From contig CP070837.1 in assembly GCA_020341815.1 (NCBI GenBank), forward strand, positions 1,236,575-1,300,574: 64,000 bases of DNA. The letters are read 5' to 3'. Below the pieces are notes generated by a model. It was not told where the DNA came from. It saw nothing but the letters and a program-made list of their open reading frames with translations, and did not search any database. A program made the position numbers and the translations under genes. The stretch comes from Candidatus Omnitrophota bacterium (GTDB taxonomy: Bacteria; Omnitrophota; Gorgyraeia; JAFGHF01). This document shows positions 18,001-62,616 of the stretch, one piece after another; the first letter of the stretch is position 1, and the number at the start of each line of letters is the position of its first letter.

Positions 18001-21000
18001 AAAGGTATCTACAGACATTGCGTAAGATTATACTGGGATGAGTTTTGCGAGCAAATTCAGGGTAAAAATTTAGAGACTCATTTTTCAAGAATTATTAATA
18101 AAAATGATATATTTACAGAATTGAAATCCGATAATTTAGATTTATTATTCAAGAATATAATTATGTGGATTAGGCTAATGGCATATTTCGATGAGCACAT
18201 TACCCCGCAGACATTCGGCGGTAATATGCAGCAGCTTCTGAATACGATAATCCATAGGGCTTATGAATTGAATAATAAATTGTCCAGCTCTCCGACTTTC
18301 TTTGTAAAAGAACGGCCATATATGAGTGCAGAAGCGGAAGAGACGCTTAAATTTAAAGAGGAAACATTAGTAATTAAGTCTCTCACAAAAGAAGAAAGGG
18401 GCTTATTGGCTAAATATAGAGAAGAATGCAATGCCTTAAAGCAGAATCCAGTGCAGTATCTTAAGGCAGCCTTAGGGTTGATAAAGTATGAAATCTCCTT
18501 AGGGCGCATCCGTTCCGCCGCAAAGCTCCTTATGCGCGTGGAGGAAAAATTGACAGCCATTGCTGAAAAGAATACCGGGGACCTGCGGGAACTATTGGAA
18601 AGGGATAGTTGCATAGAAGATATCGCGGTTTATCCGCAGAAAAGAAAGGCACTATTGAAAACCATGAGGTTGCAGCCTTTTGCTTCTCAGGCCAAGAAAG
18701 AAATACTCGAATTGATAAAAAGGATAAAGCAACAAAGGGTAATCGTCAAGGTCGCTTTAGCACGCAGTCGATTATATATCGAGCTATCTCCTGATAAATT
18801 GGGTGTGGCCCGGGCTCATTTAACTATAGCTCGCCTCTGCGAAAATGCTCTTGAAGAAAATACAAAAGCAATATGGGCTTGCCTGTCTGCTTTGAACAAT
18901 TATAGAGTTGTCTTTCTGGAGACTCAAAATGAAGAAACGAAGGAAAGGGCTCGCCAAGACGCCAAAGTGGCGCAGATGTACTACAAGCGCCTATTGCGGA
19001 AATTCCCCAAAGCTCGCGAGGAATATCTAAGACAATTAAGTGAGTTTAGAGAAAAAAGAATATTTTTCAATAATAACAATGGAGCTTTCCGCTTCGATAT
19101 AGATACCCTATTGAATAATTTACCTCATTTACTAAGCCAAAGAGAAATCATCTATCTTTTAAATAAAAGAAAGCTTGACGAACATTTCTATAAGCGGCTC
19201 TTGAATAATAGAAACAAAGCACTTAGAAACCACAGAATACCGAATTTTAATGCAAAAATAATTAGAATTAGAAGTGGACAACGGCCAAAATTTAGCGGCT
19301 CTCGGCATAATTATTTCGATGAGATACTCTCTATTATAGCCGATACAGACGGGCAAGGAGAATTTACGGCTGACTCTATATGGATAAAGCTGAACATCGA
19401 TGTGCCGGGAGTAATAGAGCCAATATTTATTGCATTCAGAATTACAAAGATTGGTGCAAAATCAAGCGAAAGAGCTCTTACTAGCAGAGAGTTATGGCCG
19501 AATTACCGCATAGAAATTTATTGCGGAGCGGAGAATTATAACAAGGTGAGAGAAACTATTTCCTCGCCCATCGGGAAAAAGGCAGTTAAGCCGATTACGA
19601 ATCTTAATTTTAGCAGAATAAACACGCTAAAGATACTTTCCTGGATAATGAGATTATCTTCATCCAGCTCGCCGGTTATTATAAAAATTACTCTCCATGC
19701 GTTAAACGAGAAATCGAGTTCTTTGCTAAAGAATAAAAAGATCTTAAGAGGAAATCTCCTTAAATCCATATCCATAGAAGGAAGTTTCGATGAGATTGAA
19801 AGGCGGGCCGAGGAGCGCATTCCCGATGAGATTAACAGGAGAATATTTATTCTAAAAGTTTTGGGATTTAAAGGTCCAGAGATTGCCAAGATTCTTTATG
19901 AGGAATATTTGACAGAAAAAATTTTGCATAGGGCAAGTATAAGCCTTAGATATTTAGAGGCAAAAATGCAGTTTCTCGGAATTGCAGAAGAAAAGAAACC
20001 CAGAAAGATTAAAGAGAGAAAATGGACCTGGGACTTGCTTGTTGACCAGTGGTGCAACAAAGAGCTTGTGTTTCTTGCAAAAGTCAGTGCTAACGGCATC
20101 TGGATTGGCAACAGCCCGGATGGCAAGCAACTTGTGCTTAATAAAAGCCGCAAGAAGATATATCGGCAGATAGAACAAGTAGTCGTAAGAATATTAGCCA
20201 GAAATGGTTTTAAAATTGCCTATGTTTATTCATTAAACGGAGAAGAAATAGACGCAAAGCGTCTTTGGCTTAAAGAGAATAAGCTTTGCCAGGAGAGTTT
20301 TGCTGTTAATGTTCTTTCAGATGATTTCGAAATAGAAATGCTAAACGAAAATGGCCTAAATTGTTTTGCCCGGAAAATAGCCAGAGAGATGGGCAGGGCA
20401 TTGGAAATTATTGAAGAAGCCACGAAGAAAAGAGATTACAGAAAGGCTATGCAAGGCATCAAATCGCTTATCGAAAAGATATCTGAAGAGAAAAATAACT
20501 TATTGAAAAGTAAACAGGGGAAATCTCTTGAGCTATTGAGAAAATGGAAAGCTGTAATTTATGGAGTATTCTATATCTATGATGAAGAAATGAGTTTGAC
20601 TGATTGCCTGATAGGCCTAATGCGTAATTTCAGATTTTTAGATGAGGGAATATATCCAGCAGAAGCAAAAGAAAGTAACCGGAAAATAATATGCATCTTA
20701 AAAAAGATTAAAGGAAAATTACAATCAAAGTTTTTCAATGAGCTTGTTTTCAAAGATACCACTATAACTACAAAGCTTATTTTGGATAAGGTTGCTAAAG
20801 TTGAGTCTGTTGCCGATTTGGCCAATAATTTAGTCCTGGAGTTAAAGGGCTTAATAGATGATTTGCAAATAGAATTAAAACCAGGAGAGGATTATTCAAA
20901 TCTAAAGAAAAAAATAGATACATTTATTAATGATAATATTCCCCCTTCTGTTCAGTCCCTGGAAGCGCCTTCTCTTAAACGGTTTTTGGAAAATAAGAGC

Positions 21001-24000
21001 AAGAAGACCTCTCCCGATTTAAGTGAGGAAGGAATTGAATTAGAGAAGCAGATGGCTCTGCTTCAGTCATTTAGAGATAACGCAATCAATCCTTTATCAG
21101 GAATTCTATTAAATTTCCAGCTTATAAATCAAGAAGATTTCTTGGATAAGGTTTCTGAAATAAATAGGATGCGAATGGAGGCTTTAGTTAAATTAAGGAA
21201 TATTGTAATTCTTTTAGAGGAGCTAACTTATCCGCTGAGGCATTATTCAGGCAGGAACTTATATCCGATAATAGTTAAATATAAAGAAGATACTCTATTG
21301 CCATATATAGGCTTGCCTGAACATAACATGGGAGATGTTCAGAGGTACTCAAGCCCGGTAGTGTATTTCTTGGATGAGATAGACGTTTCTAAAGAGGTAT
21401 TGGAAGAAGAAATTGATACATGGAATCCTCTTGAGGATAATCCACGTGAAAAAGAAGAATATATTAACTGGAAATGTGGATGGGGATGGGCCTGGACCAA
21501 GGATCCCCTGGAGCGTTACATTGTTTTAGAACTGATACTTATGCGATGCCGCAAGGATAATATCATAGATGTAACTTCAGATGAGAAGGGCAGGACTAAG
21601 CTCATTTTCACTCTGCCGCCACCCAATAGGATAAAAGAAGCCGTTGTAGAAAGCCGTCTTATCCGGCCGGAACTTATTGCTTATGATGAAGCTTTTGCAT
21701 CTATAGTCAATCCCGAGTTTCAGCCATTAAAGGTTGTTGCCTATCTGGCAGCGGGAGCGAATATTTCCCATCTTTACTTTTTAACCCATTTTGCAGGGGA
21801 AGATACAGAAAGAGTCGAAATTGTCTTTGTTAAGACAAAATTACCAGAGATAGATACAGAGCTTCAAGAAGAACTTGAAGGAAAAGTCCAAATCTGCTGC
21901 CAGAGAGCAGCCTCTGTTCTTCCCAGTGATTATGGAAAGTTCTTGCCTGGCGTCTCTAAATGGCTGGGGCCGCAAGGATATCTGCTGTTGAATCCTTATA
22001 TTGAATCCAGGAAGCTCTTCAATCCTATGGATTCTTTGCAGAATAAGAATTTTACCCTTATATCTGAAAACGAGCAAATAGAAAGATATTTACAAGAAGT
22101 AAGGCGTGTCTCTATTGAGATGAAAGTTCAGCCTTACGGCTGGTATATGAATTTGCTCCAGAAAAGCAGCTCACCAGTAAATATAGAAATCTCTAATTAT
22201 GAGATAGGTTCGGAATTGCTTATTAATCCTTATGGCGAAGGCCTAATGCCGTTGCATAACTTAGCTTCTGGGCTGGGGCCTCTTGACTGCGCAAAAGAAG
22301 GGAATCATGATATTGCGCTCTCAAATGGAATTGCTGCATTGGCAAAAGTTATAGCAGCTAAAGTGAGCCAGAGGCCGCAGCAGCATATGATTATAGTGCT
22401 CTTTGGAGGAGTTGCGCAGGCTGGGGGAGATGCCTATCGGAGAGAATTGGAGCTATCAATTAACGAATGCTTGAAAAAATTCAAGGTCAACAAGGAAGTA
22501 ACAGTTAAGCTTTCTTCTATGGGTAATGAGAATGTTATCATTGGCGCGATAGATTATGCCATATCAAAAATGTCTGCTTCTAAATACGATAAATATGAAT
22601 GGTTCTGCGGTGTGGATTTGGGAGGTAGTGGAGTGCGGCTAGTTTTGGTAAATCCGAAAACGGGAGAGAAGAAAACTATACACCAGTTCGATTTCTCTAA
22701 GCTGGAAGAGACTATTGAGGGAAAGCCTATACTAGCGTATTGGGGAGATTTAAGAAAGGAGTTTCGCAAGGGAGCTCAAAAATTAAATATAGACTTAAAT
22801 AATAGTGTGCCCGATAATCTGACAGGCAGAATTTTTAATAAAAAACAAAAGGGTATTCACAACAAGATTTCCGATATTTTCTTGAAGCATATAACGGCAT
22901 TAATAAGAGAAGTAGTGGGGGATAAAAAGTGCCCTGTATGTATTGGCGCGCCGGGAATATTTGGTGACGAAGGCCGGGTGAGGCTTATGTATAATTTACC
23001 TTTTACGGGCATTAATGTAAAAGAGGCCTTAGAAGAAGCGCTGGGTTTACCGGTATATATGGGTAACGATATGTACTGTGCGGGAAGAGGGGAGGCATTA
23101 GAAGGCTGGGGTAAGAACAGGTCCTGGAGAGAATTTCTTATCGTGGGAATAGGAAGCGGGATTAATATGTGTTTGGTAAAGAGGCGATATCGGGTTTTAA
23201 CCGATGTTCGGCTAAGGGCCTATTTATTTGCTTCGGCATGGAATATTGCAAATGAGGCCGTTAATAGAGGAATAAAGATAGTATTTATCAATGGTAAAAG
23301 CGCAGTACAGACAATGCTGTTATTTGAAGAATGCCGAAAAAGACTATATCCGGAAAGCGATAGGCCGATATATATATGGTTACAAGGCGCTAATAGAGCA
23401 GGCACAGGCGGGTATTATGCAGAAAGGGTTATTAATATAATTAGATACATTGAAGAGTGCCTTAATGAGCCTGTTCTTATTATTGATGACTCTGTAAGCG
23501 GTACTTTAGCGAAGACAAAAGAAATATTAAAAAATGAGTTCGGCAAGAAAGATGAGGTGTATACCGCAGCTTTAATATTGCAGCCTTGTTGCCGGAGCTT
23601 AGATATTGAGCTGACAATTATGCCAAAAGAAATAATGCTTGAGGAGTTATGGTATAGAACCTGGAATTGGTATTTGGCAAGAATTAACAATAACTCTGCC
23701 CCGGATAAATTATTAGGCCTTCTTAACCAAGACTTGCCCTGTGATTTTGAGCTTTTGGTTGAGGAGGGGGCAAAGTCAGATGCCTGGGAGAAAATTAGAT
23801 TTAGAAATCAGGTCGATTCATTGCTACAAGAATATCCTTATCTAAAATTATCATATAGTTTTCTTAGAGAAAACCCGGAGGTTTGCAGGAATTTAGGTAT
23901 AGATTTGCAAATTCCCTTCGCAACAGTAAATATGCAATTTAGCCGCATGGTGCAAGAGGTCTTTGGTATGAAGTGGAAAGAATTAAAAAGAAAATATCAG

Positions 24001-27000
24001 GCCACGGATGGGCCATTTTTCACGGCATTGAGAAAACAGATAAAGCCGATATTAAAAGAATATCCTCGCATTCCCGAGAAAAGATTGTATTACATCATCA
24101 AAAATGATAAGCCGGCCTCAAGAATGCATAGCTTGGAAATTTTTTATCTCAGGCTAAAACAGATGGGCGGATTAAAAGGATTGCGTCGAGAGGTAACTGG
24201 GAAACAGGGTGCAAAGATACTTTCCTCGCCTGCTACACAGGAAAGTTCCATAGAGAAGAAATACGATTTGACTTGTCTAGGTTTGCTTAAATTTGCAACG
24301 GAGGTAAAAGGAAATCACGAATTTACCAAATTACTTGTAACTTTGATACAGGAAATAAGAAGGATCTTGTTGTACTATTCTGATAAAACGCCATTGACTC
24401 TTTCCAAAAAGGAAATTTTTGAAATTATTCAAAATAAAAAGGACGCAAAAGAGCTTTATGGATTCCTCCGGGAAGATCAAAAGTTACACGAAAAACATCC
24501 CTCCTATCCTCCCAAATATAATCTGGTAATTCAATTGATGGAGAGATTTCTATCCCAAATCAAAAAGAATCCTTATATAAAATGCTGTAAACGAAAATAT
24601 TTTGATAGTTGTATTCATTGCTTACTTGCTTTTGATAATGAAGAAGTAATAAAAGCGATTCTTGATGTTTTATCTCATTCAGAAGAAGAAATCAAACAGT
24701 TCGCAAATAAGCTGATTAAGGAATATTTACAGAATGATAATATCCTTTCAATAAGAGAATTGATGGATGCATCTTTAGCGAAAAAAAATAATCTTTGTCA
24801 TTTCTTGGATAGCCTCTCCGTTAATAACAGCACTGTCAAAAATATTTTAATTGTCTTGCTGGGCATTCTATTTGCCTCTTCTGAAGATGAAAGATTTGAA
24901 TTGGCTAAGAAAGAAAGAAGGGATATTGTTCTCAATGCATTTGAGAATAAGGCCTTAAATAAACTTATTGAGTTTTTGAAGAAAAAGGAAAGTTCTATAT
25001 TAAGGGCCTTAAAGAAGAAGCGTTGGAAGAAGTTAGAAGCGGAGAAGAAATCATTAGATGAGCGCCTGAAGACATTACGTTCTGATTATGGAAATAATGC
25101 TATTGGCATTATTTCGCATACGATTAGCGATGGGGCCGTTATAATTCCTTCCGAAACTTCAGAAGTTAAAGGTTGCAATCTGGCTGAGTTTGATTTGGAA
25201 GATGGTGTTCTTTGTAGAATAACTTTCCTGCTAGATAGCGAAAGAGATTCTTCGGAGAAAATCCATGGGAATGAAGCGCAACAGATAAAAAAGAGATTTG
25301 ACAGGACATTAGGGTTACTTGAGTATATTTTCAATATGGTCAGGGAACAAAGACCTGTGCCGTTTGCCAGCGTAAAGATTAGAGATAATGATTACAAGAT
25401 TTTTGTGGATGCGGGAAAGATCTATCCAGAACTCATCAAGGTTTATCAAGTTTCCAGCTCGCCTATTAAGATATCTGAACATAATATAGAAGCCATAAAG
25501 CAAGTCGGTGAGCTTATTAAAAAAGATTTCTATATTCATGTAAGTACAGCAATGGAGAAATCAGAATATACAGACACCAGGGAACATTTTTCAAGAGATA
25601 TCAAGACTATTTTAAGGAAGAAATGGCATGTCTTAAGGGCTGAATCCAAGAAGAAAAATAAAGAAAAGTTTAAAAAAGAAATAGATGCGTTGTTTAGCAA
25701 TGATCCATGGATGGAGGTGGATGAGATATCGAAAAGCCTTGAGTATGATTTCAGGTCCAGAACAGAGTTAAGGGAAGCAGTAAAATATGCTTTTGGGAAA
25801 AATTTAGGACCATTGAGAAAAGAATATCAAGAAAAATATTTGGCGCAGGTTGAAATGCTGGCGCAGTTATTATTAGATAAAGACATTTTTATAAACTTTA
25901 AAAAAGCAAAAGATGAAATAGCCAAAATGATTCCCAGTATAGCTGACATATCCAATGCTACATTTCACAGAAGGCTTCCCTCCGGGGGATGGTATATGAT
26001 GCAGGTCCGCAAAACAGACAGACTTCTAAGGGCATATTATAGAAGATTCTTTAAAGAGGAAAAGAAAGAATTTAACTTGGCTAATCTTTATCCAGTCTTT
26101 AAGAATGAAGGATATTCTATATCATTATCAGAATTCCGCAAAAAGATGCGTTTTGTTTTAGTGCAGCTTGCTTTAGAGAAATTAGAGAAAGACAAATCTA
26201 TTTTAAAGAGCATTTTAGCCTTTAAAAAGAAAGGATATCCTATATTAGTGCTGTCATTTCACAAAAAGATGTATTCTAATTTAGTGGAATCTGCTTTAAA
26301 GGCAATAAAAGAAGATGAAGAAAAGAACACGGCTCAGAGCTCGCCTGTAGTGTCATCTGTGGAAGACAGGATAAAAAGGGTTTGCGAAAGAGCAGCTGTG
26401 CTTTTTAAATCAAGGTTGCCTAGTAAGGCCATAGAGACATATGAGCAGGCTATTGAATTAGCCCTTAAGCATAATTATGGCACTATCGGGCAACTTTATC
26501 TTACTGTAGCCAGGACTTGTTATTATTCCCAGCAGTATAAAAAAGCCATTAGATATTATGAATTAGCCCTTAAGCACGGTATGAATAACAGGTCTCTGTA
26601 TTATTATATAGCAGTTTCATGTTATAAATCTAAAAGGTATAATCGGACAATAAAAAATTGCAGAAAAACAATTAAACAATGCTATAGACAAAAGGATTCA
26701 TATCATTATTTAGCCATGTCATATATGATATTAGCAAAAAAAATAATGGGCCGATATATAAGAAAAGATACAGGCAGGAAAAGCAATAAAATTATCAGGG
26801 CAGCAAAATCAAATAACATATGGGTAACTCTTTTTAAGAAAGCTGTTGCTTATTTTGAAAAAGCTGATCCTAGGCATGAACATTTACAGATTGCGGCAAA
26901 ATGCTGCTATTTTTTAGGATTTATTGATCAGGATTTCTTTATTCGGGCAGTTGAAAAATTAGAAAAAGATATCAATGATTATGGAGATGATCCCTGGTCA

Positions 27001-30000
27001 TATTTATTTTTGGCGAATACCTTGAACCAGTTAGAAAGATACGAGGAAGCTATTTATAATTATTTGCAGGCGTTTAAATGCGGCCATGACGAAATAAAGG
27101 TGTATTTTAATTTGGCAGAGGCCTATATACGTAACGGGGAATGTCCCAAGGCTGTGGAGATACTTGAGCCGTTCTTGAAGTCGTACAGTAAGAATTTCCG
27201 CTTGCAGCTTACTCTGGCAAAAGCATATTTCATAAACCAGGAATATTACAAGGCCCAGCAATGCTACAACGAAGCTGGTACATTAAAACCTGAAAATACA
27301 TCCGTGCTTTTGGGATTGGCTGGGGTTTGGAGGATAAAAGAGAATTATGATATGGCTGAAAGATATCTCACAAAAGCTATAAAATACGATCCCGAGGATT
27401 GGCTTTTGTATAAGGAGCGGGGATATGTTTATTTATTAAAAGGTGATTTTAATAAGGCTATTGAAGATTATAAGAAGGCGATATCCCTTAATCCCGGCAA
27501 CGAAAGATTATATATATTCTTAGCAGAAGTATATAGTGCAATGAGTGACCTCTCTTCCGCCAGAGAAATGGTTAACAAGGCAAAACAAATTGACCCTAAC
27601 ACGCATATTCCTAATAAGTTAGGCATAAGCTCACCTGTAGAAGAAAAGGGAATGCTGAAAAGTCTTGATATGGAAGATTATGTTTCAATAGGATTTAAGC
27701 TTCCAACAGGGGACAATATTATCCAAATTCACAAAGAATTATTTAATGTTATTATTCTTGAATGGTCTAAGCAGAAGGGTTTGGATGTTTCTCCTGAGGC
27801 GATTCTTTATGTACTTTCAGGATTTTTGGAAAAAGAATATGCTTTTTTAAAGGAAAAAATTAAGGATGAGGATATATTTAATTTTTATATAAGTAAAAAG
27901 GTAATACCTGACTTGTTAGATATAGCAAGAGAAATGCCTCCCGATAAAATTCCCGATAAAGATATATGCTGGACGAAAAAAGAAGAAGTATCTAATATTG
28001 AGGATATTTTCCCGAATATAGCAATCTATCTTTTTAGGCTTTGGAGGCTTATCCAATGTAAACAAAAAGAATCATGGAATGATTTTTTTAAGCGTCATCC
28101 CGTGCCGGTTGTAAATTATGGCAATAAGAAGCATTTAATCTTTGGATATGGAAGTCATCGTTTTCTTCTAAGTTGCCTGTTGGGACATACAAAAATTCCC
28201 GTAGTGGTTTACAGAGCCAAAGATAATAATGACTCAAAACATATATCTTTACCGATAGCTACGGGATATCTTTATAGAAAATATATGTGCGGACACAGGT
28301 ATCTTCAGGATACCGAACAGACTATCGTAGGAACTATATTTGCCCGCTTGGGAGAAATTGCCGATAATTTTGGAGCATTTTCAAAAATAAATCGCGATAA
28401 GGATGGAAACACAGTAATCCGGTTCGATGTGCCTTCCTTTCCCGACAATTTTTCAGAGAGAGAAAAAAATAAAATAACAGCCGAATATGAGGGAGCATTA
28501 TTTGAAGTAAGTTCGGGCTTTCGCTCTTCGCCTATAAATAGCTCTGTTAAGGATATGGAGATTTTGGTAGTTACTTCCAGTTCACCTGTAAAAATTGGGT
28601 TTGAGCCGCCTGAGGCTAAAATGTATGAAGAATATAAAAAATTAGGGATAGAAGTGCCGCAGAAGGTCTCTCCTGAATCAATAGAAAAAGTCCATTTAAT
28701 AAACAAGCGGAAGGCACCTATCCAAGAGGAGATTATTAAATGGTTGAATAAGAATAACGCAAACTTCAATGACTCAGGATTGAGCGATGAGCAGCGGGCT
28801 GATGCGTTGTTATCAGCGCAGAAGAATCCGGAAATATACGACTTAACCACTACTTGGTGCCGGAAAAAGGTAAAGGAACTTAATAAGCTTAAAGGCTCGG
28901 CCGATGAAATTTTAATTGAGACGCTTGCTTTTATTCGCGAAGTATGCTGGTTGACTATCGGAAAGTGGCCTCGGGATGTGCAGGTATTGGGCGGTGTAGT
29001 CCTGCATGAAGGCGGCTGGGCAATCGAGATGGGTTCCGGAGAAGGCAAGACCCTGACTGGTCTTTTTCCCGTAGCCTATAATGCCATTCGCGGAAAACGG
29101 GTTTGGGCTGTAACGATTAATGATTATCTTGCCTGCAGGGATCTCCAGTTTTTGGGTCCAGTGTATGAACGCATGGATTTTCCTGCGGGAGTGACGGCAT
29201 GGGAAGGTAAAAGCTTTAAGTATACTCCCGATGCTGAACCCAGTCGTCGCATATGGCCTAACCTCCAAGCTCTTCATTATATGTATGGCTCTCCTGAGGC
29301 ACGAAAAAAAATTCATGAAATGCCTATTGTTTATGGTTCAGAACATGCATTTGTCGGAGATTATTTACATGACGGCATGATCTACACTTTAAAAGACCAG
29401 ATGTTCGGTAGATTGCCGGATTTTGTTCTTTTTGATGAAGTTGACTTTGTACTTATCAGTAAGGCGGATGATCCGCTAGTTATTAGTATGCCAAGAAGGG
29501 GTAGCAGAAGTAATATTATACACTATCCCTGGCTTTGTCGCCTTGCCTTAAAACATTTAAATGAAGGGGATGATTATGTCGTCAATAGAAGATCTAAAAA
29601 GGCTTTTCTTACCGATCGAGGAAAAGAAAAAATAATAGAAATTTCAGAGGAATATGATGAATTGAAAAGGTTAAAAGATAAGAAGCCTATAACATTAATT
29701 TTGCTTTTTGAGGCGGCTTTGACTGCAGCTCATCCTGAGCTTTATCGCAAGGATAAAGAGTATGTTATTAGAGGAGACAAGGGAATAATTCTCATTGACC
29801 CAGAGACCGGTGCCAGGAGGCCAGGGGAAGCCTTAGGCAACTATTTGCATGGGCCTGTGGAACATTTCGCAAAAATTCCTATTAGTATGGATTTCAATCC
29901 GCAGGCAAGAATGACTCGATGTGATTTTGCAAAGACATTGTCCGATGCAGGAGTAGAAGTAGCCGCTATGAGCGCTACTATAGGTCCAGATGCAGAGCTT

Positions 30001-33000
30001 TTAAAGACGTATGGACTTAAGGTGCGATATCTGCCTCGGCATTTTCAAAATATATGTAACCATTATCCTCTTATCCTCTGCATAAGCAGGAAGGGGAAGG
30101 AAAAAGCTATTCTTAAAGAGGTGCGTACGATGGGAAAAGAAGGCAGGCCAATAGTAATACTTGCTCCATTTGTTGATGAAGTTCACAATCTTTCCGATCT
30201 GCTTAAGCATGAAGGCATTAAGCATCAGGTTATCGATGGCAGCAAGCCCGAAAAAGAGCCTTATTTAATATCCCAAGCAGGCCAGAAGGGACAAGTAACC
30301 ATAGGTATAATTAAGTTGGGATGGGGCACAGACTTTACTTTGTCGGAAGAAACAAGAGCATTAGGAGGTTTCCATATAATTATCCCGCCTTTGAGCTCTT
30401 GGCGAGCATATCAACAAGCCAGGGGGCGTGCGGGCCGACAGGACGATCCGGGAAGTACGCGGATAATTGCATCTATATGGGATGAACTTATCCAGATACT
30501 TGGAGGAGAAAATTTAAAGAAAATTCTTGAGAAGGTTAAAGACTTGCCTGAGGATGAGCCTATTGAAGATGAAGAAATAAGGGCTTTGTTTGAAAAAATC
30601 CTTCTTGAAATTGAGAAATATAACAAAGAGCACCGTGCTGAAATGTTAGAACAGGAGAAGCATTTTAAGCAACAAAGAGAATCGCTTTGCTCCTTAAGAA
30701 AGTTTATTCTTCACAATCCAAGGCTTAAGGCCAAGGAAAGAGAAGGCATATTGAAAGTATTGGATAGCAATTGGAGGAAATATTTAATCCGCCTGGAAGA
30801 ATTGAAGAGGGAACGATTGCTGGAAGATTTTGATTTGAGCAAATGTTTGGAGGATACACAATTTGCGGAAGTGATGGCCAGCGCCTTACTTAGTCAAATC
30901 GAATTTATCTATATTTTAAGGAAAAAATTCAATAAAAAATGGAAAGGAACCTTGACTTTCCCCTTTGAAGGAAAATTTTTAAGCGTTTTAATAGATATTA
31001 TTCAAAAAAGATACCATCATACTATAGAACATGAGGAATTACTTCAGGAGATAACAAAATCGAGGAGACCTCAAGAATTATCCGCACTTGATGATTTGAA
31101 AAGGCTATGGGATAGAGAAACAATAGAACCATATTCTTCAGAAGAAAGAAATTTAAGTTTGGACGATCGCAAAAATGAAATTTCAATTAGCATAATAAGA
31201 ATTAATTTTCCGGTTGGCGAAAGAGTTCTTTCTGCCATGGCAGTAAAGATTTATAAAGATGATAAGAAGACGAGAAAACTTTTGGGATATCTTATTAAGA
31301 TTCCCTATGGCATAAATACTTTTACAAAATATTGGCGCAAGCCAGAGGAGGGAGAATTATCTCATGTGGAATTTTATCCCCAAATAATAAAGGAAATATA
31401 CCGGATAAAAGAGAAAATGCCCCTTATAAAAAAGGCTATAGAAGATGTGGAAAAAGCAGAGTCGCCTATGAAAATCGACCCTATATTTAACCATATTAAA
31501 TATGCTGCAGAAATTATTGTAAAATCCCATATAGAACCAGATAGTAACGATGGAAAATTCATCAAATTCCTTTACGATTTATTGCTGAATGCCGAAAATA
31601 TTCCTTCATCAACGCAAGACCCTTTGATTCGATTGAAGAAAAAAAAGAGAATGGAACCATTGAAAGAACTTTTAAAGGATAGAAGCTTGGAAGATGTCGT
31701 GGCGGAAATGAGACGTAACAACTTGCTAAGATTAACTACCGATACCGAGAAGATTTTTTTAGCGCTTTATTATAGAAAATCAATAAGCGAAGCAATGCGA
31801 GATTATAATCGTTCCAGGGCGGCAATAAATAACATTTTCAGGAATTGGGAGAAGGCAATATCATCTTTTTTAATAAACATGGATCGTTTTTCCAATCTTC
31901 CGAAGATAAAAAGGAATTGTTTAAATGAAATTATTTCCAAAGGGATTATTTGCGTAAACGAACCGGATGATTTTTTGGATATTCATCACGATTTACTTAA
32001 AAATGTATGCAAAGTTTTAGATAAAATAGAAAAATATTTAGATATTTCAATCTTTAAAGGCGCAGAATTAAAGTTTGAGTATGGTTATTTGTCGATATTA
32101 ATAGACAATATAATTTTCACTCTTGATGCCCCCGGGTCTATCGATTCTATAGGTAAGCATTTTGTAAAATTATTTATCGATAAGAAGATTCCAGGGACAT
32201 CGCTAAAGCAATGGAAGGAGTTTATACAAAAAGCGGGATTTGAATATATAAGGGATGGCAAGCCGATTAAACCTACGGCTATAAGAGAAAAAACAATATA
32301 TAAAACTGAAGGATGGACAAATCTGGACTCGGGCCCTTGTAAAAAATTGAGAGATTTATTAAAAGAAATTCAAGATCCGTACAATTATTTAGTGGAAGCG
32401 TTATGGCTATTATTAAATAATCCGGATTTGGTAAATGAGAAAGATCCTATTTCTGTATTTATTCAAGAGGCTTTAGGGTTTGGCGCTGCTTCTATAGAAA
32501 GCTCATCGCCTATAGATAATGTATCTATAACAATAGAGATGAAGGATAGATTCACAAATGCAAAGCCAAAAAGAATAATTAATAAAAAATTTGCAAAAGA
32601 AATAATTGTTTTATTAATAGATGATCCTTGGATGAGATCAAGGGAAATAATGGAAAATTTGGTAAATGAATATTTTAGATTTCCGAAACAATTGTCCAGA
32701 AGAATAAAAACTACTTTTGGAAAGGATTTAGAAGTATTGAAGCGGGAATATCAGGTCAAATGGCTTGAGCATATGGATAAAGAAGCATTGACAATCTTAA
32801 ATGATTGCCCTTGCATGAGAGGTATGGAAGAGCTTAAGGAAAAGTTGGCAAAGCATATTCCTATCCTGGATAAGATGCCCATAAATACTTTTAGAGGAAG
32901 ATTGCGGTCAATTCCGAAATTACACGAAAAAGTATTATCATTGCTGAAGTCCGCTAGAAAACTCCGCAGCCTCTCCAGCCCGGCAAATATTTTTTATCAA

Positions 33001-36000
33001 AAACTTTTTTCTTTTTTAAGTAAAAAGAAAGACCTTTGGGTTGAAATAAAGCGGATATCCCGGACAAATAAACTTCCTAAGAATGGGATATATGGCTCTT
33101 CCAGGATAATTCAGTTAGGGACAGAAAGCCTAAATTCGGTTATAAAGCATTTTATGCTCTATCAGGGGTATGTAGTTCGAGGAAACATCAAGTATATTAA
33201 CGATGAGGCTTGTTTAAAGGGAATAAGCATTACAGACATACTTGATTATTTAAGCAAGATCGGCATTAAGGAAGTTCTGTTGCTTGTTAAAAATTGTGAG
33301 GGTGAAAAAGGAATTTTAATTCCGGAAGGCATGAAAGTTATTATCCCTTTAACTAATATTTCTGAAGTTTATTGTTCTATGGATAACATAGACTATCGGT
33401 TTATAGATGGTCATGATATAGAAGAGAGAAGCAAAAATTTGGAAAAAGCACTTAAAGAGAAGACAGAAATAAAGACTTGGATCAGCGAGCGCTATCTTGC
33501 CGGAGGTTGGAAGGTCATTGATAAGCGAGACAAAAAAGATAAAGCCTATTTATATACATGGGAAGATGTCCTCCCCAGGATAATAAAGCGGGCTCTTAGA
33601 AAAAAGATCGAATCTGAGCACGAGGAATCTTTTCAGAAGGCAACTCAAATAATAGTAGAATTTCATTTCGCAGGCTATTCTTCTCAATTGGGTAATATCT
33701 ATAGAAGAGATGCATATGATGAGAAGCTTATTCCGGAAGATAGGAAAATTAGATTAAAAAATAAAAGTAAAGATAAGGTTATAAAATATTTAGTTGAGAA
33801 AACCGGCAAATCTAAAAAATATTTTGAAAGGATGAAAGAAAAAGAGCTTCGTGAGCTTTCTATAATGATATGCGGTAAGAGTCATTTCAAGGAAAGACTT
33901 ATATTTGAGCTCTTAGCAGACAAGGCTAAGCTTAAGCTTAACTGTAAGGTGAGAATTATTACACAGTATCATGCTGAAGATTTTGAAATAGAAATTGATA
34001 AAAATGAATTATTTTCCTCCAGCCCGGCAGTAATAGAATTAGGGAAAACACAAAAGATAATGCAGAAATATCTTAGTAGGAAATTGGGGGCAGCAGTTTC
34101 CTCGCCAATGGAAAGGGATAAGTGCGTTCATTCAAGAGATAAAGCCTCACCGGCTACAAAAATACCTTCTCTAGCAGCTAATATCATACGCTTTATGCCG
34201 CGAAAGGATAAGGTGAGGGTAAGGCCTCCGGGGTCAATGACAAAGGCAATGGCATGGATAAAGGATAGCAATAAGCTTATCTATGACAGAATGTTAGAGA
34301 CCTTTATGTCGGAGATTCCCAGGAAATTATTGGGTGAATTTTTAGAGAAGTATTTAATCTCAGAACATCCCCTGCTTACTCCTTTGCAGAAGCAGGCGAT
34401 GAAGGGTTATTTGATTAAGGTAGTAGAGGCTCTTGGTGATAACATGCAGCTTGCCCAGCGGTTTGTTGTTTTGCGGAAAATAGATAACCCTGTGCTTAAT
34501 GTTAAAGATTTAGCAGATGAATTAGGGCAGACATCGCGCTGGGTGGAGAGCTTATTATATGGCGAAAGATATCCAGATTATTATTATCAGGGTTCATATG
34601 AGAAAATTATAAATTATATCCAGAGAAACGATGAGGGTATGTATCAGCTTATATTAAAATGTATGATCGATGATTTTATGAATAATATGTTTGTATTTCT
34701 ATTAAATGGCGGAAGTAAGGTAAAGAAAGAAGATATATCCAGAGATTTTAGAAAATATTTACATAAGGCTTTATCTAAAGCCGGTCTCGATAAGTCTCAA
34801 AAGAAATATTATGAATATTTGTTGAATAATCCATCCAGCAGTGAAAAAGATATTGCAAATGAATTAAATGTTTCTGAATCAACCGTAAATAATAATTTAA
34901 AAGGAAAAGACCATTATTATAAGGCAAGTGGATATAACTATCAGGCAACAAGCGCTGAGAAAGAATTAATAGATTTTATCGATAAGCAGTTGACGCCAAG
35001 ACAGGATACGGCATATCTTGAAAAATTAAAAAGGAAATTACACCAGAAAAGGGTGGCAAAAATAGCCGATAATATTCAAGGAATCGCAATTTATAGAGAA
35101 ACAATAAGTTATATATGTAGTTTTGCGAAAAAAGCAGACCTTGAAGATATATGGATGCTGGGTTATTCTTTGGCGAAAAAAGCCGTGAAGGATAAATGGA
35201 GCCTTAAGAAAATGATGTTTATGGTTTTTCTTATTGAGGAATTGTTGAATAATATGTTCGAAGAAGGCAATCGTCCTGAGGCAGCCGAAATTATTTGTAA
35301 ACAGGCAGGAAATAAAAGATTGTTTGATTTAACTAAGGAAGAAATGCACAGCTTAAATCGAAAATTAAAGGCATCTGGTGCGCATGTTATTAGACAGAAG
35401 AAAGCTTTTTTCTTTATCATGCCCGATTCGAGTGCAATAGAAATGTTAGTTAATATAATATTGAAGAATAAAAAGAGAGCTAAACAGGAAGCCAAGGAGC
35501 TATTGCAAGGATTAAGGAATAGAAGGAGATTAAAAAAATTCATTAGCAATCAAATGAATAATAAAGTGCGTTCTATTGGACTGCCGCAAGAGCCTGCCCT
35601 GCCCCGGAAAAGAGGAGATGAAGTTATCCTCAATCAGAAAAATGAAAGCGGGCAGCGCATAAAGATACAATATAACACAGAAGGCTCTTTGCGGATCTTT
35701 TATAAAAAAGGTGGCGAACAAAAAACGGGAATTATCAGCTTTATGAAGGAAGAAGAGAATAGCATAACTATAATGGTGGATTGTGATTTTTTCTTGGAGT
35801 CGGATATAATGACGGAACTTGTACTCTGGTTTTCCCGGTTGTTGTTGTCGAAACAGGAAAAGGGAAAATACATCGCTATGCTCTTTTCATTCACTGATCC
35901 CCCTGTAAATATCTTGTTATCTATACTTGAGAGATACGGGAGTGTCATAGGCTATTGGGACGGCAAGCGGTATCGCGGGAAAAGGGTTTGGAGGAGGATT

Positions 36001-39000
36001 GGAGATAGGACTCTTTCAATAAATTATCTTGGTTTGCGCGTCAAACCCACAAGAGAAAAAGTTTATGGCCCTAATATAAGAAAAACCAGGACACTTTCCT
36101 CTCCCGCAAAAGATGGTTCTAAGGATAAAAAAGTAAAATTTCTAAACTGTCCCGATACAATAAAACCGATTTCCGGTATTTTCTTAAGTGGGATAGAGCC
36201 GTCTGAGCAGAAAATGCAACAGCTTCTCCCTGCATCCGGCAATAGGGCAGAAAAAAGAATAAGGGGCGTGGCGGAAGTTGTTGGGGTGTTCTTAAGCAAG
36301 AATGAGGATACTTCTGATTCCGCCGCCTCGCCAATAGACTCAAGTAAAGAAAATAAATTAGATCTCGGAAAAATAGAGCCCTATATTGATTGTTTGGAAA
36401 ATATCATAAGATTAGCAGCAATGCTCCCTGATAGTAGAGAAGAAGGCTTTTATTCAATTATATTTTCTCTGAATTGCAATCTCAAAACATTAAAAGATAA
36501 TTTTGATGAAAATAGTATTCAAGATATAGAAAATTTATTTAAAAAATTATGGCAAAGTACAGTGCAGATATTGAAGGATAGAGCAAGAGAAGTTCACAAA
36601 AATTTAAATCCTAAAGAAATATATAAATTTGGCTGTATGATTAAAGAATTTGGGGTGCTTAAAGAAAGTTTATTTTTGGGCCAAGAGCCTATAAAATCGG
36701 TTTTAGAAATAGAACAAGAAATAGTAGAAAATATTTTAAAAAGATTGAAATACTATCTGAAGACAAAATTGATAGACTTAGATTTTAGAGATTCCAATCT
36801 TGATGAATGGAATAAATTTATAATGCAAAGAGCAACTTCTATAGAACTTCTGCAGGAAGATAAATGGAGAAAAGCATGGTCATCCGTTGATGGAAATAGG
36901 AACCGAGATTCCATCTCCTCGCCGATAAATCCGGGTTTGCCGCAGAGCGAGAAAGACATTCTTGAAATCATTTCCCACTTTATAATTACTGATAAAGAAA
37001 GCTTATCTGAATTGACAAAGGGTGTTAGCCAATTAATTTCTTCAAGACAAAAAGATTTTCTTGCTATTGAAAATAAGTTAAATATGGATAGCTCGGAAGA
37101 AATGATATCGGGCCTGCAAGATTTGCGTCTATTAATATTAGGAGATGTAATAAATACCAATAATATCAATTTTCTTGTTGAGTATGACAGAATAGATAAA
37201 AATCTTATAGGATATGTTGCGTTACCTGTATTTACATATATCTTTTTGCGTCTTTTATTAAAGCAAAAAAATGTATGGTGCTTTTGTGCACCGGAACATA
37301 TAGTTAATTTGATTTCTATTAATGAGTCAGAAGGCTTATTTGTAGATAGCTTTTTAGCAGAGTTTTTTGAGATAGACTTGCGTGAATATTATAGATGTCA
37401 GAATAAGCAGTTATCTTTAAAAATTGAATATATGCCTGAGAGCCAAAGGGCCTTAGGATTGCAAGATAAACTTAATCTGTTTTACAATCCTTTGAGATGG
37501 CAGATAGATATTCCCGCTTTAGTAGAAAAAATAAAGCATAATACCTTACGTATTAAGAGAGATAGCTTTTCTGTTTTCTATGTTCCTATTTTGGGAAAAA
37601 ATGGAAGAAAGGAAAAAATATTCGAAATATATCAGATAAGGTCCTCTGATGGGTTAGGAATAAAGTTGACAGAAAAGAAGATGGTAACAGAACTGTTATT
37701 GAAAGAGAAATTTTGCAAAGATGCAAAGTTGATTACTTTTCCCGTGGGGAGGGATGAGCAACTGCTTAATCGCAGAGAAGAGCTTTTTGAAGAGTCATGG
37801 GACAAACTGATGCACAGGTTTCCGATAAAAAGAGATAAGCCATTGCTTCCATGGGGCTTTTTAAGCAATATAAGAGGCATAAAAGAAGATGCTTCTAATT
37901 TTTATCTCAGTTCTCCGGCTACGGATGCCGTATTTAAAGCATTAATCAAAAATCCTTTTATTTCCAAAACAAAATTTAATTTTGCGGTCAGCTTGTCTGT
38001 TTTTAATCAGATGTGTGCGAAGGCTTTAGTAGAAAGAATAAAAATAATTTTAAGGGATGAACTGTTAGAAAATTTGCCTAATTTTACTCTGGATAATTTA
38101 TATGAGAAATTGCAAGAAATATACAGCTTAATCACAGATAAAAACTGTTTAGAAAATAATAAAAAGAAAAATAAATCTTTTATTGCACATATAGAGAAGA
38201 TGCTGAAATTAGCTAATACTTCCTGGATAAAAATAAAAAAAGAAATTATGCTAGAAAAAGCAAGACAATTATATCCTTTTGTTCAGCAAAAAGAGGAAAT
38301 CGCCAAAGAATTAAAGGACTTATATATAAAAGATAAAAATAAAGGGGTAGATTTTAGGAAAGCACTAAAAAGAAGGGTGAAGGGATTATTAAAAAATAAT
38401 CTCTGTATGCCCGAAAATAAAATAAGAGCTCAAATAGTGAAAGATTTAGGTGTGAGAAGAATTTATCGGCAGAGACTTTATGAATGGCTAGAGCCGTTGG
38501 GAGGTCTTAAGCATTTACGTGCTGAGGCGCTATATGAAATATTGGAAGAAATAACTGCAAAAAGACAACAAGAGCAAAAAGTCTTTACCCTGGATACATT
38601 TTTTTATATGTTTATTGTATTAGGATGGCTTGGCTTAGGTTCCGGCATAAGTAAAAACTTTTTCCGCAGAGAGATAAATGAGTTATTAGCCAGATTGGAT
38701 ACGTCTTTTGAAGAAACAGAGGCTGTTGCCTTTCTGAAGACGAAAGGAGTAGATTTAGAAAGTAGTATATTTAGGAGGCGGTCTAATGATGATCCCAGGC
38801 CAAGATGCACTTATCAAAGAGCATATAGAAGGTTGAAGCTGATTGAGAAAACATGGAATGAAGCGGATTGGCAGGGAGTAGAGCATGAGCCTTTTTCTGT
38901 AAAGGAGATAAACTTAAAATGGCTGGCACAATGTTCTCCCGAAAGACTTAAGCAGAAAGTATTAGAACGAATTCAGCAAAGAATAGAAGAAGCAAAGGCA

Positions 39001-42000
39001 GATGAGTATATTTTAGAGACTTTAATCAGCCACGGCGGCCATCAAGGGCAGGCAGCGTATGCATTGGGCCTGACCAGGTACCAGCTAAGCTGGCGATTAA
39101 AGCAAAACCCGTTTTTAAGAGGACTGATCGACCCCAAGAAAGTTATTGCAGAGAGCAATAGGCGGAAATGGAAAGAAAAGAAAATACACAAGGCATTAAC
39201 AGAGCTTATCTTAGGTATTGCCGCAGAGACAGAAGAAACATTTAAGGGTCAAAGCCCGGATGTGCTTATTTTGAAAGCAACAGATTTGGTATTGGATAGA
39301 TATAATAATATAAGAAAAGACAATCTTCAGTTTGCCTTAATGAAGACAAAAATAATTCTGGGCACGCTTAAATATGAAAAAGATCCTATTTTAAGAAAAA
39401 TAGTCCTTTTATTGGAAGACTTTATATGGCTTTGCCATCAGATTATAGCATTAAAAACTTTTACAAAAGCAGAAAACTCATTATTGCTGAAGAATTATAA
39501 GAAAGCAAAAGAATTATTTTCTGAAATTAGCGCGATTGCGCCTGAAGGAAGCGACTTTGCCGCGCGGGCGGTTGTGTCTATAAAACGATGTGATGACCTG
39601 ATATTGGCAGTATCGGAATTTACTGCGGCAAAAAGAATGATGAGGTGGCAACGATTGGAAGATTATCAATGTGCACTGGGAAACTTTATAAGAGGTATAA
39701 ACAGGATTGAGAGATATAAGGATGAGCCTTTGGAAGGGAGTATTATTTCCGAGGTATGGCAATATATAGATGAAATTATAGATGAGTCATCATCAATATA
39801 CTATAGGCTGGGTAAAAAGCTGATTTTAAATGAAGAGTTTGAAAGAGCAGAAGAAGTTTTCGAAGAAGCAATACTTCTATTTGCGCCGATTGTCAATATG
39901 CCGCAGGATACGACAATCATTGATAAAACAGAAGGACATAAAGATGCTTTTGCTGATTTGAAGAAAATAGCATCTATGCTTGCAGTCTCTAAGCAATTAA
40001 GGATAAATGGATGTTATGAAAGGGAAAGACTTTTATTGCAAAAAATTATTGATTATATAAGGAATGTAAGCGGAATGATTCTTACGGGTTTTTGTGCGGA
40101 TGTTGCCCAGCACCATATGAAAAAATGCGCAAAATCCATTTGGGCTAATTCCAATTGCAATAAAATAGATAGTAATAATTTTATTTCCAAAGAATCCTTT
40201 AAAGAAGAATTTTCTTTAGAAAAACTTAGAATTTATCGTATATTGCAGAAATTTTCTATAGAGAATAAAGTTATTTTAGAAAAGCTAAAAATAGATATCC
40301 TTGCTTTAATAAATATTATAATAAATCTTGAGCCGAAAATTAATGCGTGTCTGGAAGGTTTAGAGGACAGGAAAGACCTATATGCTTATATCAGAAAGGA
40401 ATTGAATTGGGCAAGGGAACGCGGATACCCTTTAGGGGCAATTATTGCTATTATTGATAACATTTTATTGGAGAGAAAAAAATGCTTTTTAGAAAAATTC
40501 GGGGGTGTCTCTGTTATCTCTTCTTTCGAAGGACGGCATATTTATGGCAGGGGAGGGTATCTTCATAAAATAGAGGCAGAAGAGGGAGGAGCAGTAATAT
40601 TTGACGAAAGAGGTTTTTTAACAGAGATTATTTTGACAGACGATAGATATAGGCCGATAGGGGTTATAAGAATTAAACGTCTGAATAATAATAATAACAC
40701 TAAAATTACTGCTGATTTTAGTGAATATGGGGATATGACTAAGACTAAGACTAAGGATAAGGTGTCGAGATATAAACTAAATTACTTAGTAGCCGCCTCG
40801 CCGGCTCACCGGCAGGAGGAAAATAGTGACACAGACCGCATATTTATAGGAAAAGCATTCTTGCGATGTTTTGATATTGGACTTGCGGGCCTTGTGAGTC
40901 TTATTTCTATCATTGGTTATACATATTTTTATACTAAATTTTATGCTCCCCAGGTAGATTTTTATAGCCATCTGAATGAAAATATATTCGGTTGGTTTCT
41001 TGTTATATTTATTTGTGTAGGATTGCATGAATTGGTGCATCGTTCAGCGATTAGATATTATAAATATAAGAAGAAACATCAGTTGGAATATAAATTTAAC
41101 TGGTTTAGTTTTAAAAAGGGCACATACTTTACTATAACTACTAAAAATAGAAAAATTATTAAAAAAATAGAAAAAAGAGGCAAGTATACTAGCCGGATAT
41201 TATTTGCATTTTTTGTTATTTCAGGAATTATATTACCGGGTTTCAATTTTGAGATAAAAATAACGGGTTTTATAATAACAATATTTAGAAAAATTCATTT
41301 ATCTTTGATGGGGTTAATAAAGTTGTTTTTTAGTTTTTCTTCAAAAGATATAGAAGAAATAAAAGAAGTAACTTATGAAGAATCACAGCAGATTATTATG
41401 CGAATGATTAGGCAATGTCAAGCGGCTTTAGAGAGGCTCATCGTAAAAAAACCTACAATGATTATGTGGGGCGGGAAAGGGCCTTGTGTAGGTAAAGGAT
41501 GGACAGCTCGTAATTTTAGTAATTATTACAATAAGCATAAAAAAGGTAAGAAAGGTCAATCTTATGTTATCAGAGGAGATAATAGTATATATCATTATAA
41601 AGACCGGCCACCCCCATCTAAGGTAGGTTATCCTGAGAATACCTTTGATATTGAAAGATTAGAAATAGTAGTAAAAAGCGCTGCTTCTTTAAAAGAAGTG
41701 CTTATGACTATTTATGACGATACATTTAGGATGCCTTTAGGGGTTTCGGAAGAAATGCTTGCAGAAGCTTTGAAGAATTGCCCTGTTATGCAAAAAGGAG
41801 GTTATGAATTATTGCTTCTGCCGGATGCTGTAAAAGATGTAGAATTGAAATATTTTTTACCCGAAGATTTCATTGATGAAATGATTGAAAAAGTTAAAAA
41901 TAATGGCGATGATGAGAAAATAATCGAGAAACAGATTAAAACTATAATTAATAGAAGCAATCAGCCTTTAAATAGTAGAAAATATTTAATTAGTCCGGCA

Positions 42001-58658: not shown

Positions 58659-58665
58659 GACAAAT

Positions 58666-59523: not shown

Positions 59524-59524
59524 G

Positions 59525-60025: not shown

Positions 60026-60200
60026 GTAAAGGTAAAGTTAGAGGTTTTGGTTTTCAGCTTGACCGCGAGAAGATCTTATTATATAAAGACAGTCCTGCAT
60101 GGGAAAAATTGCAATGGCTGGAAGAAGCTAATCGCTTCTGTCAAAAATTTGTTACCGGCAGGCGCCGCAAAATATGGGAGAGTATCCGCCGAGGATAATT

Positions 60201-62504: not shown

Positions 62505-62616
62505 CCTCTCCAGATCGGTAGGAGGTGATGCATAGCGACGACAACTCGGGGGCGGCAACATTTAACTTAGTATTAAGTCATAAGTTGTAAGTTTTAGAAG
62601 AAGGAGGAAAAAACAA

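Follow-up and report, generated by a model that had tools for sequence, protein, structure and literature searches.

A strongly diverged SecA-derived module within a giant open reading frame of Candidatus Omnitrophota

We analysed a 64,000-nucleotide (nt) stretch of Candidatus Omnitrophota DNA (contig CP070837.1, positions 1,236,575 to 1,300,574 of the forward strand), referred to below as the window, in which a giant open reading frame (ORF) encodes, deep within its product, a module related to the translocase motor SecA. Profile, sequence and structural comparisons identify this module as a genuine, strongly diverged derivative of SecA and not as a generic DEAD-box or superfamily 2 (SF2) helicase. 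The giant ORF lies on the plus strand and runs uninterrupted through 18,721 codons to a single stop at its 3' end. Because nt 1-24 of the window hold no stop in its frame, the ORF is open at the 5' edge and the gene probably extends upstream; its product is at least 18,721 amino acids (aa) long. A stop-free frame of 56 kb in AT-rich DNA is not a product of chance, and a 6.4-kb contig from an independent Logan assembly (L001, SRR14739666) reproduces the last 553 codons and the downstream genes at 100% identity. Pfam recovered HEAT, CxxCxxCC, B12-binding and Radical_SAM, ROK, SecA, TrmB-type helix-turn-helix (HTH) and HD_5 domains in the giant protein, in addition to a weak M48 match and a TPR array approximately 400 aa upstream of the SecA-like module. 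The module itself occupies approximately aa 9586-10300 and is flanked by about 9,500 upstream and 8,400 downstream codons, all in frame and free of stops. The giant ORF is followed by genes for a solute-binding protein and two ABC permeases, a small DUF6036-like ORF, a gene for a GH2-like/TPR protein and an unknown ORF.

A preliminary description of the window, made from its letters alone, had read nt 28890-30480 as a complete SecA-like translocase motor lodged inside a much larger polypeptide, citing a series of SecA/DEAD motifs. A coordinate check located every quoted motif in frame, in order and where it had been placed, and the segment does lie within the ORF of nt 25-56190. The interval named falls inside the module, which is wider on both sides and is preceded by a conserved leader (Table 1). 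Matches to Pfam SecA_DEAD, P-loop_SecA and SecA_PP_bind all exceed the curated cut-offs. The last of these (E-value 7.1e-11; 43.1 bits, where the cut-off is 23.5; covering positions 13-110 of a 110-position profile) bears out the insert that had been likened to the preprotein cross-linking domain (PPXD). A phmmer comparison with PDB sequences aligned query residues 94-729 with residues 26-663 of T. maritima SecA (3jux_A, E-value 5.2e-83), a span that covers NBD1, the PPXD, NBD2 and the beginning of the helical scaffold.

Table 1. Coordinates of the SecA-like module, its parts and other features of the window
Feature	Position (nt)	Strand	Evidence or remark
Giant ORF carrying the SecA-like module	25..56190	+	ORF list, Pfam, Logan assembly match
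B12-binding and radical SAM pair	11692-12708		Pfam, 1.4e-20 and 4.1e-22
Conserved leader, giant aa 9515-9620, including SPESIEKVHLIN...IQEEI	28567..28884	+	BLASTP, common to P0122
SecA-like module	~28780 to ~30930	+
NBD1 (Pfam SecA_DEAD)	28837..29622	+	3e-45, residues 105-366 of window:28525-31200
Walker A, GSGEGKT (in NBD1)	29032-29052	+	In frame
Motif Ia, VTINDYLACRD (in NBD1)	29110-29142	+	In frame
Variable insert between motifs Ia and Ib of NBD1, giant aa ~9710-9770	29150-29330	+	Alignment
Walker B, DEVD (in NBD1), continuing FVLI	29434-29445	+	In frame
SKADDPLVIS	29458-29487	+	In frame
PPXD, inserted in NBD1	29548..29862	+	SecA_PP_bind, AlphaFold2
Motif III region, AAMSATIG (canonical SecA, GMTGTA)	29962..29985	+	Alignment
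NBD2 (Pfam P-loop_SecA)	30019..30537	+	8.7e-27; strands and helices in AlphaFold2 at residues 414-586 (835-aa query)
Motif V/Va, GWGTD	30319..30333	+	Trp at the E. coli R509 position
Trp codon TGG, giant aa 10100	30322-30324	+	Replaces the R509 arginine finger
Motif VI region, SSWRAYQQARGRAGRQDDPGSTR	30394..30462	+	RGRxGR arginines and R566 equivalent kept; ERHESRRIDNQL degenerate
GRAGRQDDPGSTR	30424-30462	+	In frame
Long scaffold helix of the helical scaffold domain	30571..30714	+	AlphaFold2, phmmer, hhalign
Helical remainder after the scaffold helix	30748..30930	+	ILKVLDSNWRKYLIRLEELKRE resembles the canonical IDxxWxxHL helix
TrmB-type winged helix	~34771-34902
HTH_8-like element, giant aa 12980-13028	38962-39108		44% identical to the last P0122 HTH
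Three hydrophobic segments, giant aa 13612-13740	40858-41241
HELVH (HExxH motif) ending the middle hydrophobic segment	41026-41040
Separate weak Peptidase_M48 match	~51166-51534
Operon of solute-binding protein, permease, permease, GH2-like and unknown genes	56485-63933		65-90% identity in closest genomes

An AlphaFold2 model of 835 residues, built from a 54-sequence alignment, had a mean pLDDT of 76.9 and a pTM of 0.78 and was confident for residues ~21-650, with the PPXD at a pLDDT of mostly 72-94. The top 36 Foldseek matches of this model in the PDB were all SecA or SecA2 (best E-value 2.9e-46), and the highest TM-scores, 0.71/0.77, were to B. subtilis SecA in its SecY-bound form (6itc). 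DinG/XPD/UvrB came next as a fold class, at E-values of 2.5e-10 or worse and with TM-scores of ~0.3. A generic DEAD/SF2 helicase core, the alternative identity considered, is ruled out by the presence of the PPXD and of the scaffold helix, by the poor score of the generic Pfam model Helicase_C (E-value 0.17) and by the low TM-scores of the SF2 proteins other than SecA. The earlier assignment to SecA specifically has therefore held: the PPXD is present, the NBD1 signature at the N-terminus can be aligned from residue 26 of SecA onward, and the fold matches that of SecA.

The claim of completeness has not. Among the Pfam models against which alignment had been suggested, SecA_DEAD and SecA_PP_bind scored above threshold, but SecA_SW, which represents the wing and scaffold, stayed below it (17.6 bits, cut-off 26.7). 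The scaffold helix itself can be located. The AlphaFold2 model contains a 48-residue helix at residues 598-645 with a pLDDT of ~78-89, hhalign gave a probability of 94% for a match to the canonical scaffold helix, and the phmmer alignment extends through this region as far as T. maritima residue 663. Local alignments place ILKVLDSNWRKYL about 10 residues after the scaffold helix; this sequence resembles the IDxxWxxHL helix that comes after the wing in canonical SecA. Because this helix follows so closely, the helical wing domain, which is not recognisable in the module, appears to have been deleted or reduced past recognition. The same short spacing of about 10 residues from the scaffold to LDSNW is found in local alignments of all five embedded modules described below; global HMM alignments run colinear across the wing region and leave room for a remnant reduced past recognition.

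Beyond the scaffold helix the pLDDT is only 40-57. The match of ILKVLDSNWRKYL to the canonical IDxxWxxHL helix is a weak one (phmmer second domain, T. maritima residues 754-779), as is an alternative hhalign alignment to the two-helix finger region (E-value 0.011, probability 3.8%), and the two-helix finger (IRA1) loop LRGYGQxDP is not conserved. The helical remainder of nt 30748..30930 may form a short hairpin resembling a two-helix finger. No C-terminal linker or Zn finger was found in the module: it has no CxCxSGxKxKxC motif, and the alignment stops before that point. A linker and Zn-finger tail, which binds SecB, is common among SecAs but not universal. The module also has no free N-terminal helix.

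Residue conservation was assessed over 106 near-invariant columns, each at least 95% conserved among 238 canonical SecAs. The module keeps 65 and departs from the consensus in 41, one or two of which are alignment artefacts at the wing gap; its embedded relatives keep 72-82. Retained are the Walker A GKT with its Lys, the Q-motif Gln, motif Ia, the Walker B DEVD, the RGRxGR arginines of motif VI and the R566/D212 pair. Several other motifs have changed. DEARTPLIIS has become SKADDPLVIS, TFQNYFR has become TRCDFAK, and ERHESRRIDNQL has become PPLSSWRAYQQA; in motif III, where GMTGTA reads AMSATI, two canonical Gly residues (conserved at 100% and 97.5%) are both replaced by Ala. In motif V/Va TNMAGRGTDI is replaced by IIKLGWGTDF, which puts a Trp at the position of E. 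coli R509. This column holds Arg in 238/238 canonical SecAs and also in the embedded modules P0122, P0121a and P0121b, and the alignment of a further embedded module, L064, retains GRGTD. R509 is described as an arginine finger that is critical to recognising the gamma-phosphate (bioRxiv 10.1101/2021.08.31.458331, citing Keramisanou 2006).

The full-length NCBIfam models reflect the same divergence, with module scores of 183-356 bits against cut-offs of 725-1493. For the SecA models these were 356 against 862 (NF006630), 323 against 814 (NF009538) and 306 against 800 (TIGR00963), and for the SecA2 models 308 against 930 (TIGR03714), 183 against 725 (TIGR04221) and 217 against 1100 (NF012136). 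A canonical Omnitrophota SecA run as a control (P0067) scored 1176 bits against a cut-off of 814. Together, the SecA_SW score, the missing linker and Zn finger, the NCBIfam scores and the R509 substitution contradict the description of the module as complete. No sec genes, and no accessory SecY2/Asp genes, were found in the 64-kb window; the module is internal to the giant ORF and not a gene of its own.

When 1.84 billion cluster representatives were scanned exhaustively with HMMER, two Omnitrophota-type, multi-domain proteins with embedded relatives came out well ahead of any canonical SecA (best E-value 1.6e-81). The top match, P0121 (E-value 2.1e-114), is a 4930-aa protein with two SecA-like modules, P0121a and P0121b. 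It is encoded by the Candidatus Omnitrophota metagenome-assembled genome (MAG) GCA_043823005.1 (MFH1846136.1; L007:10001-24793). The second, P0122 (E-value 1.1e-111; ENA ERZ24794656, L005:10001-14272), is 1423 aa long and 36% identical over 820 aa. BLASTP aligned P0122 aa 84-864 with giant aa 9515-10312 (36% identity, E-value 9e-121). This alignment includes the leader of ~100 aa upstream of the module, which matches P0122 aa 84-163, so that what is conserved as a unit extends beyond SecA. A fourth embedded source is the L064 module, from an Omnitrophica GWA2_41_15 bin, which lies in a fragment of a giant ORF, ~270 aa short of its end, and a module fragment also occurs in L077. Word-indexed protein searches, with the single sequence or with a five-module profile, returned canonical SecAs only, at 27-33% identity, and did not recover P0121 or P0122. 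Scanning GTDB species genomes with the module yielded no relative, and a scan of JGI metagenomes yielded three canonical secA genes only; none of the collections searched gave an orthologue near enough for selection analysis. HMMER matches of 1,200-2,200 aa were considered as possible further fusions and set aside; their alignment consensus is colinear through SecA to the Zn finger, and they look like canonical SecAs with long insertions.

Although their overall identity is only 24-36%, the five embedded modules have the Walker A GKT and the Walker B DE without exception. In neighbour-joining (distance) trees, in which long-branch attraction is possible, the window module, P0122, P0121a and P0121b form a clade with bootstrap support of 100/100, with the window module and P0122 as sisters (99-100/100). 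Adding L064 gives a single embedded clade (85/100), and the canonical Omnitrophota SecA P0067 groups with other canonical SecAs outside it. Independent support comes from the common, shortened arrangement after the scaffold: in 5/5 embedded modules the scaffold helix is followed by a short linker and then by an LDSxWxxYL helix. In P0122 the scaffold is detected by Pfam above threshold (43.5 bits, profile positions 1-62). Of the clade's members, the window module sits on the longest branch and retains the smallest number of conserved residues. The insert between motifs Ia and Ib occurs at the same place in T. maritima SecA and in the best canonical matches (P0001-P0007), and is found neither in the canonical Omnitrophota SecA P0067 nor in the L064 module; this distribution may offer a hint about the ancestry of the module.

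Base composition bears on whether the embedding is real. GC content is 0.41-0.47 over the module (nt 28400-30800) and 0.32-0.35 in its flanks, and the normal genes downstream have 0.44-0.48. Such a profile would fit a normal secA that misassembly, or sequencing errors erasing stops, had fused to the genes beside it, and confirmation by the second assembly is limited to the final 1.7 kb of the giant ORF. We considered this artefact and rejected it, and leave it next to no probability. The other recognised domains in the giant ORF are likewise raised in GC, and the relatives are likewise embedded. No canonical SecA is more than 33% identical to the module, and its nearest relative reaches 36%; the module also lacks the C-terminal features of SecA and is in frame with thousands of stop-free codons on either side. 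Embedding has also been reported from curated complete genomes (West-Roberts et al. 2023; Nielsen & Lui 2026).

Other observations concern the same composition. Pfam finds nothing in a second GC-rich block (nt 8001-10000, GC 0.463), which may conceal an unrecognised conserved domain. A 247-aa ORF on the minus strand (nt 28305-29048) overlaps the start of the module and probably owes its existence to the raised GC of this stretch. We also looked in the giant protein for a second, more degenerate SecA module or internal repeats, and found none.

Transmembrane candidates in the giant ORF were sought with a simple Kyte-Doolittle scan only, and this crude measure yielded ~14 of them. The radical-SAM domain falls between single hydrophobic segments, which conflicts with an in/out topology drawn from the same scan. 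As an observation in its own right, the B12-binding/radical SAM pair is an oxygen-sensitive enzyme type of the cytoplasm and fits poorly with a picture of that part of the protein as an extracellular adhesin.

Taking these features together, we propose that the module acts as a cytoplasmic, cis-tethered, nucleotide-gated polypeptide clamp and would be more a slow ATPase than a processive motor, a reading that in our judgement stands about level between right and wrong. The module would face the cytoplasm, since SecA and every recognisable domain around the module are of cytoplasmic type. The lipid- and SecB-binding ends of SecA are missing from it, and for this reason we propose that the few hydrophobic segments of the giant protein itself would hold it at the membrane in cis. 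Because Walker A and B are invariant across the embedded clade, it is predicted to bind nucleotide. The clamp formed by the PPXD and NBD2 could then hold or feed an unfolded polypeptide. Given the loss of R509 and of several motifs that couple the motor, ATP turnover in the window copy is expected to be slow or merely regulatory. Such a nucleotide-gated holdase or clamp might assist in inserting parts of the giant chain, or of a partner, or in passing them on, and would not be a processive pump.

Several observations weigh against this proposal. The hydrophobicity scan gave no transmembrane candidate between aa 5778 and 12394 of the giant protein, which leaves the module without a close membrane anchor, inside a stretch of ~6,600 aa. 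For the two-helix finger, the part of SecA that enters SecY, the profile match is weak and the model of low confidence. The substitutions R509W, DEARTP to SKADDP, TFQNYFR to TRCDFAK and ERHESRR to PPLSSWR argue for an ATPase activity that is weak or absent. Every domain recognised in the giant protein (radical SAM, ROK, HD, HTH, TPR, HEAT) is of cytoplasmic type, and little of it obviously needs export. Finally, the nearest relatives pair the module with arrays of HTH_8, a DNA-binding type of domain, and not with secretion components.

The neighbourhood of the giant gene indicates how fast it may be changing. The first ABC permease is 85-90% identical to genes of Candidatus Omnitrophota MAGs, and nearly all of the best 80 loci carry that name. 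The importer operon (Table 1) is conserved in the closest MAGs (compared with L008-L013). In at least 25 loci a very long plus-strand ORF runs off the 5' end of the compared DNA upstream of the importer, so the synteny of a giant gene followed by a sugar importer is conserved. No similarity to the giant protein of the window was detectable in the C-terminal parts of the giant ORFs at the importers of related MAGs; the sole matches among those ORFs are the SecA-like module in L064 and the B12/radical-SAM region in L046. This pattern suggests that the giant gene turns over extremely fast within an otherwise conserved neighbourhood, and the locus is hypervariable.

Such turnover is what one would expect if the module were a decaying relic or pseudo-enzyme, that is, a SecA-derived domain that has lost catalysis within a fast-evolving mosaic gene and now has a structural role, a protein-binding role or none, as a cargo domain. 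Giant ORFs that cannot be aligned between MAGs whose neighbouring genes are 65-90% identical would fit this explanation, as would the position of the window copy as the longest branch in its clade, the lower number of near-invariant columns it keeps (65/106, against 72-82 in relatives) and the Trp that it alone has at the arginine finger. Other features are harder to reconcile with decay. The module runs for 2.2 kb without a stop or frameshift; it retains Walker A and B, motif Ia, the motif VI arginines and the fold, which AlphaFold2 models with confidence over residues 21-650; and its GC content and amino-acid make-up resemble those of a constrained domain and not those of the AT-rich flanks. 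We regard a relic as possible though unlikely.

The domains adjoining the relatives raise a different question. Every SecA-like module in P0121 and P0122 directly precedes 6-8 Fis-type HTH_8 domains (8 matches in P0122), so that P0121 carries two units of a SecA-like module plus an HTH array, and NCBI names P0121 a 'helix-turn-helix domain-containing protein'. The module might accordingly have been repurposed from secretion as an SF2-type ATPase, with a regulatory function or one on nucleic acid that it would exert jointly with DNA-binding HTH domains. The window protein has a TrmB-type HTH and an element related to the last HTH of P0122 (Table 1), yet a search of it for HTH_8 arrays gave only this one weak copy, ~2,700 aa downstream of the module, and L064 and the other Omnitrophota giant-ORF fragments gave none. 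The polypeptide-binding PPXD is retained, and no feature specific to nucleic acid was found. We consider such repurposing quite improbable. A narrower form of the idea, limited to the sub-clade of the window, P0121 and P0122, holds that a SecA-derived ATPase has been re-used with Fis-type HTH_8 arrays as a repeated unit that is not a secretion device, and that the window copy, with its Trp at the arginine finger, is a catalytically dead clamp derived from it; this we judge rather unlikely. Were it true, the SecA-like and HTH array unit could act on nucleic acid, or could link the locus, the mRNA or the nascent chain to the membrane. A literature search found no description of the combination of a SecA-like module with an HTH_8 array, and HTH domains go unmentioned in the available part of West-Roberts et al. 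2023.

Proteolysis offers one more route to a functional module. The hydrophobic segment ending in HELVH belongs to a region that may represent a putative membrane-embedded metalloprotease, which could process the giant protein. With the weak M48 match, this is compatible with a polyprotein from which proteases, encoded by the giant ORF or by the host, excise the module as a free, SecA2-like accessory ATPase. Cleavage of giant proteins by their peptidase domains has been suggested (West-Roberts et al. 2023). The structure of M. tuberculosis SecA2 (4uaq) also matches the model, and in P0122 the module stands within ~160 aa of the true N-terminus of a 1423-aa product. That product is an uncertain guide. 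An rve_3 transposase gene on the opposite strand (L005:14232-15371) overlaps the 3' end of the P0122 gene at the contig end, and an insertion sequence may have interrupted a larger gene, of which P0122 would be the N-terminal part. The window protein shows no recognisable cleavage sites, and its NCBIfam SecA2 scores are far under the cut-offs. We find excision from a polyprotein improbable.

The recurrent SecA-derived module is of interest because it is the only obvious machinery-like element of these giant proteins, and it bears on how polypeptides of tens of thousands of residues are made, folded, inserted or exported. Relative to the published picture, in so far as the accessible text of the sources sets it out, our analysis adds refinements: the scaffold helix persists here without the wing and tail, loss of the arginine finger is possible, and the nearest relatives carry HTH_8 arrays. 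These leave the basic, already published observation unchanged.

Compared with canonical SecA (T. maritima 3jux/3din, B. subtilis 1m6n/6itc and E. coli 2fsf), the module has the same order of NBD1, PPXD, NBD2 and scaffold helix, retains Walker A/B, motif Ia and motif VI, and matches in fold, with TM-scores of up to 0.71/0.77. It differs in its low identity (27-33%), in being embedded and not a free protein of 800-1000 aa, in lacking a recognisable wing, a C-terminal linker or Zn finger and a free N-terminus, in the change of R509 to Trp and of 41/106 near-invariant columns, and in falling under all NCBIfam SecA cut-offs. It resembles SecA2 (M. tuberculosis 4uaq, C. difficile 6sxh/6t4h) in its shortened C-terminus and in what would be its standing as a diverged second paralogue, next to the housekeeping SecA, with a presumed dedicated substrate, and the SecA2 structures match the model; mycobacterial SecA2 (4uaq) is not known to have a wing domain. 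Unlike SecA2, the module is not a stand-alone gene, has no SecY2/Asp partners in the window, scores under the SecA2 cut-offs and groups with the embedded Omnitrophota modules. P0121 and P0122 are its closest relatives and share the shortened arrangement after the scaffold, P0122 also having the upstream leader. Unlike the window protein, they are far shorter, place their modules directly before 6-8 HTH_8 domains and retain both the arginine finger and a larger share of the canonical motifs.

The closest known system is that of the Omnitrophota giant proteins themselves. A divergent SecA_DEAD plus PP_bind is reported from most Omnitrophota giant genes, where the DEAD and preprotein-binding domains occur without scaffold and wing and group, on very long branches, in a clade apart from the canonical SecA with which they co-occur in complete genomes (West-Roberts et al. 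2023, bioRxiv 10.1101/2023.11.21.568195). These genes often lie near carbohydrate import systems, their frequent domains include HEAT_2, Radical_SAM and TPR, and the role proposed for the SecA-like domains is export of the giant protein itself. A cluster of 20 proteins with a PF07517 architecture has likewise been reported among Omnitrophota long proteins (Nielsen & Lui 2026, bioRxiv 10.64898/2026.06.07.730766). The arrangement in the window, which the preliminary description had called unusual, is thus a published and recurrent feature. It resembles the SecA-like domains of the 'Archaeovorin-type' giant proteins in phylum, in belonging to a giant ORF of more than 10,000 aa, and in the accompanying HEAT, Radical_SAM and TPR domains. 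It further shares with the Omnitrophota giant-protein class the combination of SecA_DEAD and PP_bind, a scaffold and wing undetected by Pfam, a long-branched and separate clade and an adjoining carbohydrate ABC importer. It differs from the class, as far as the accessible text describes it, in keeping a scaffold helix (which Pfam misses in the window), in lying mid-protein, ~8,400 aa from the C-terminus and far from hydrophobic segments, and in the loss of the arginine finger. The protein and its module are new to the databases searched, with a nearest relative 36% identical. An embedded SecA-derived module in an Omnitrophota giant gene has already been published, and the module in the window is a further, very divergent example of the class so described.

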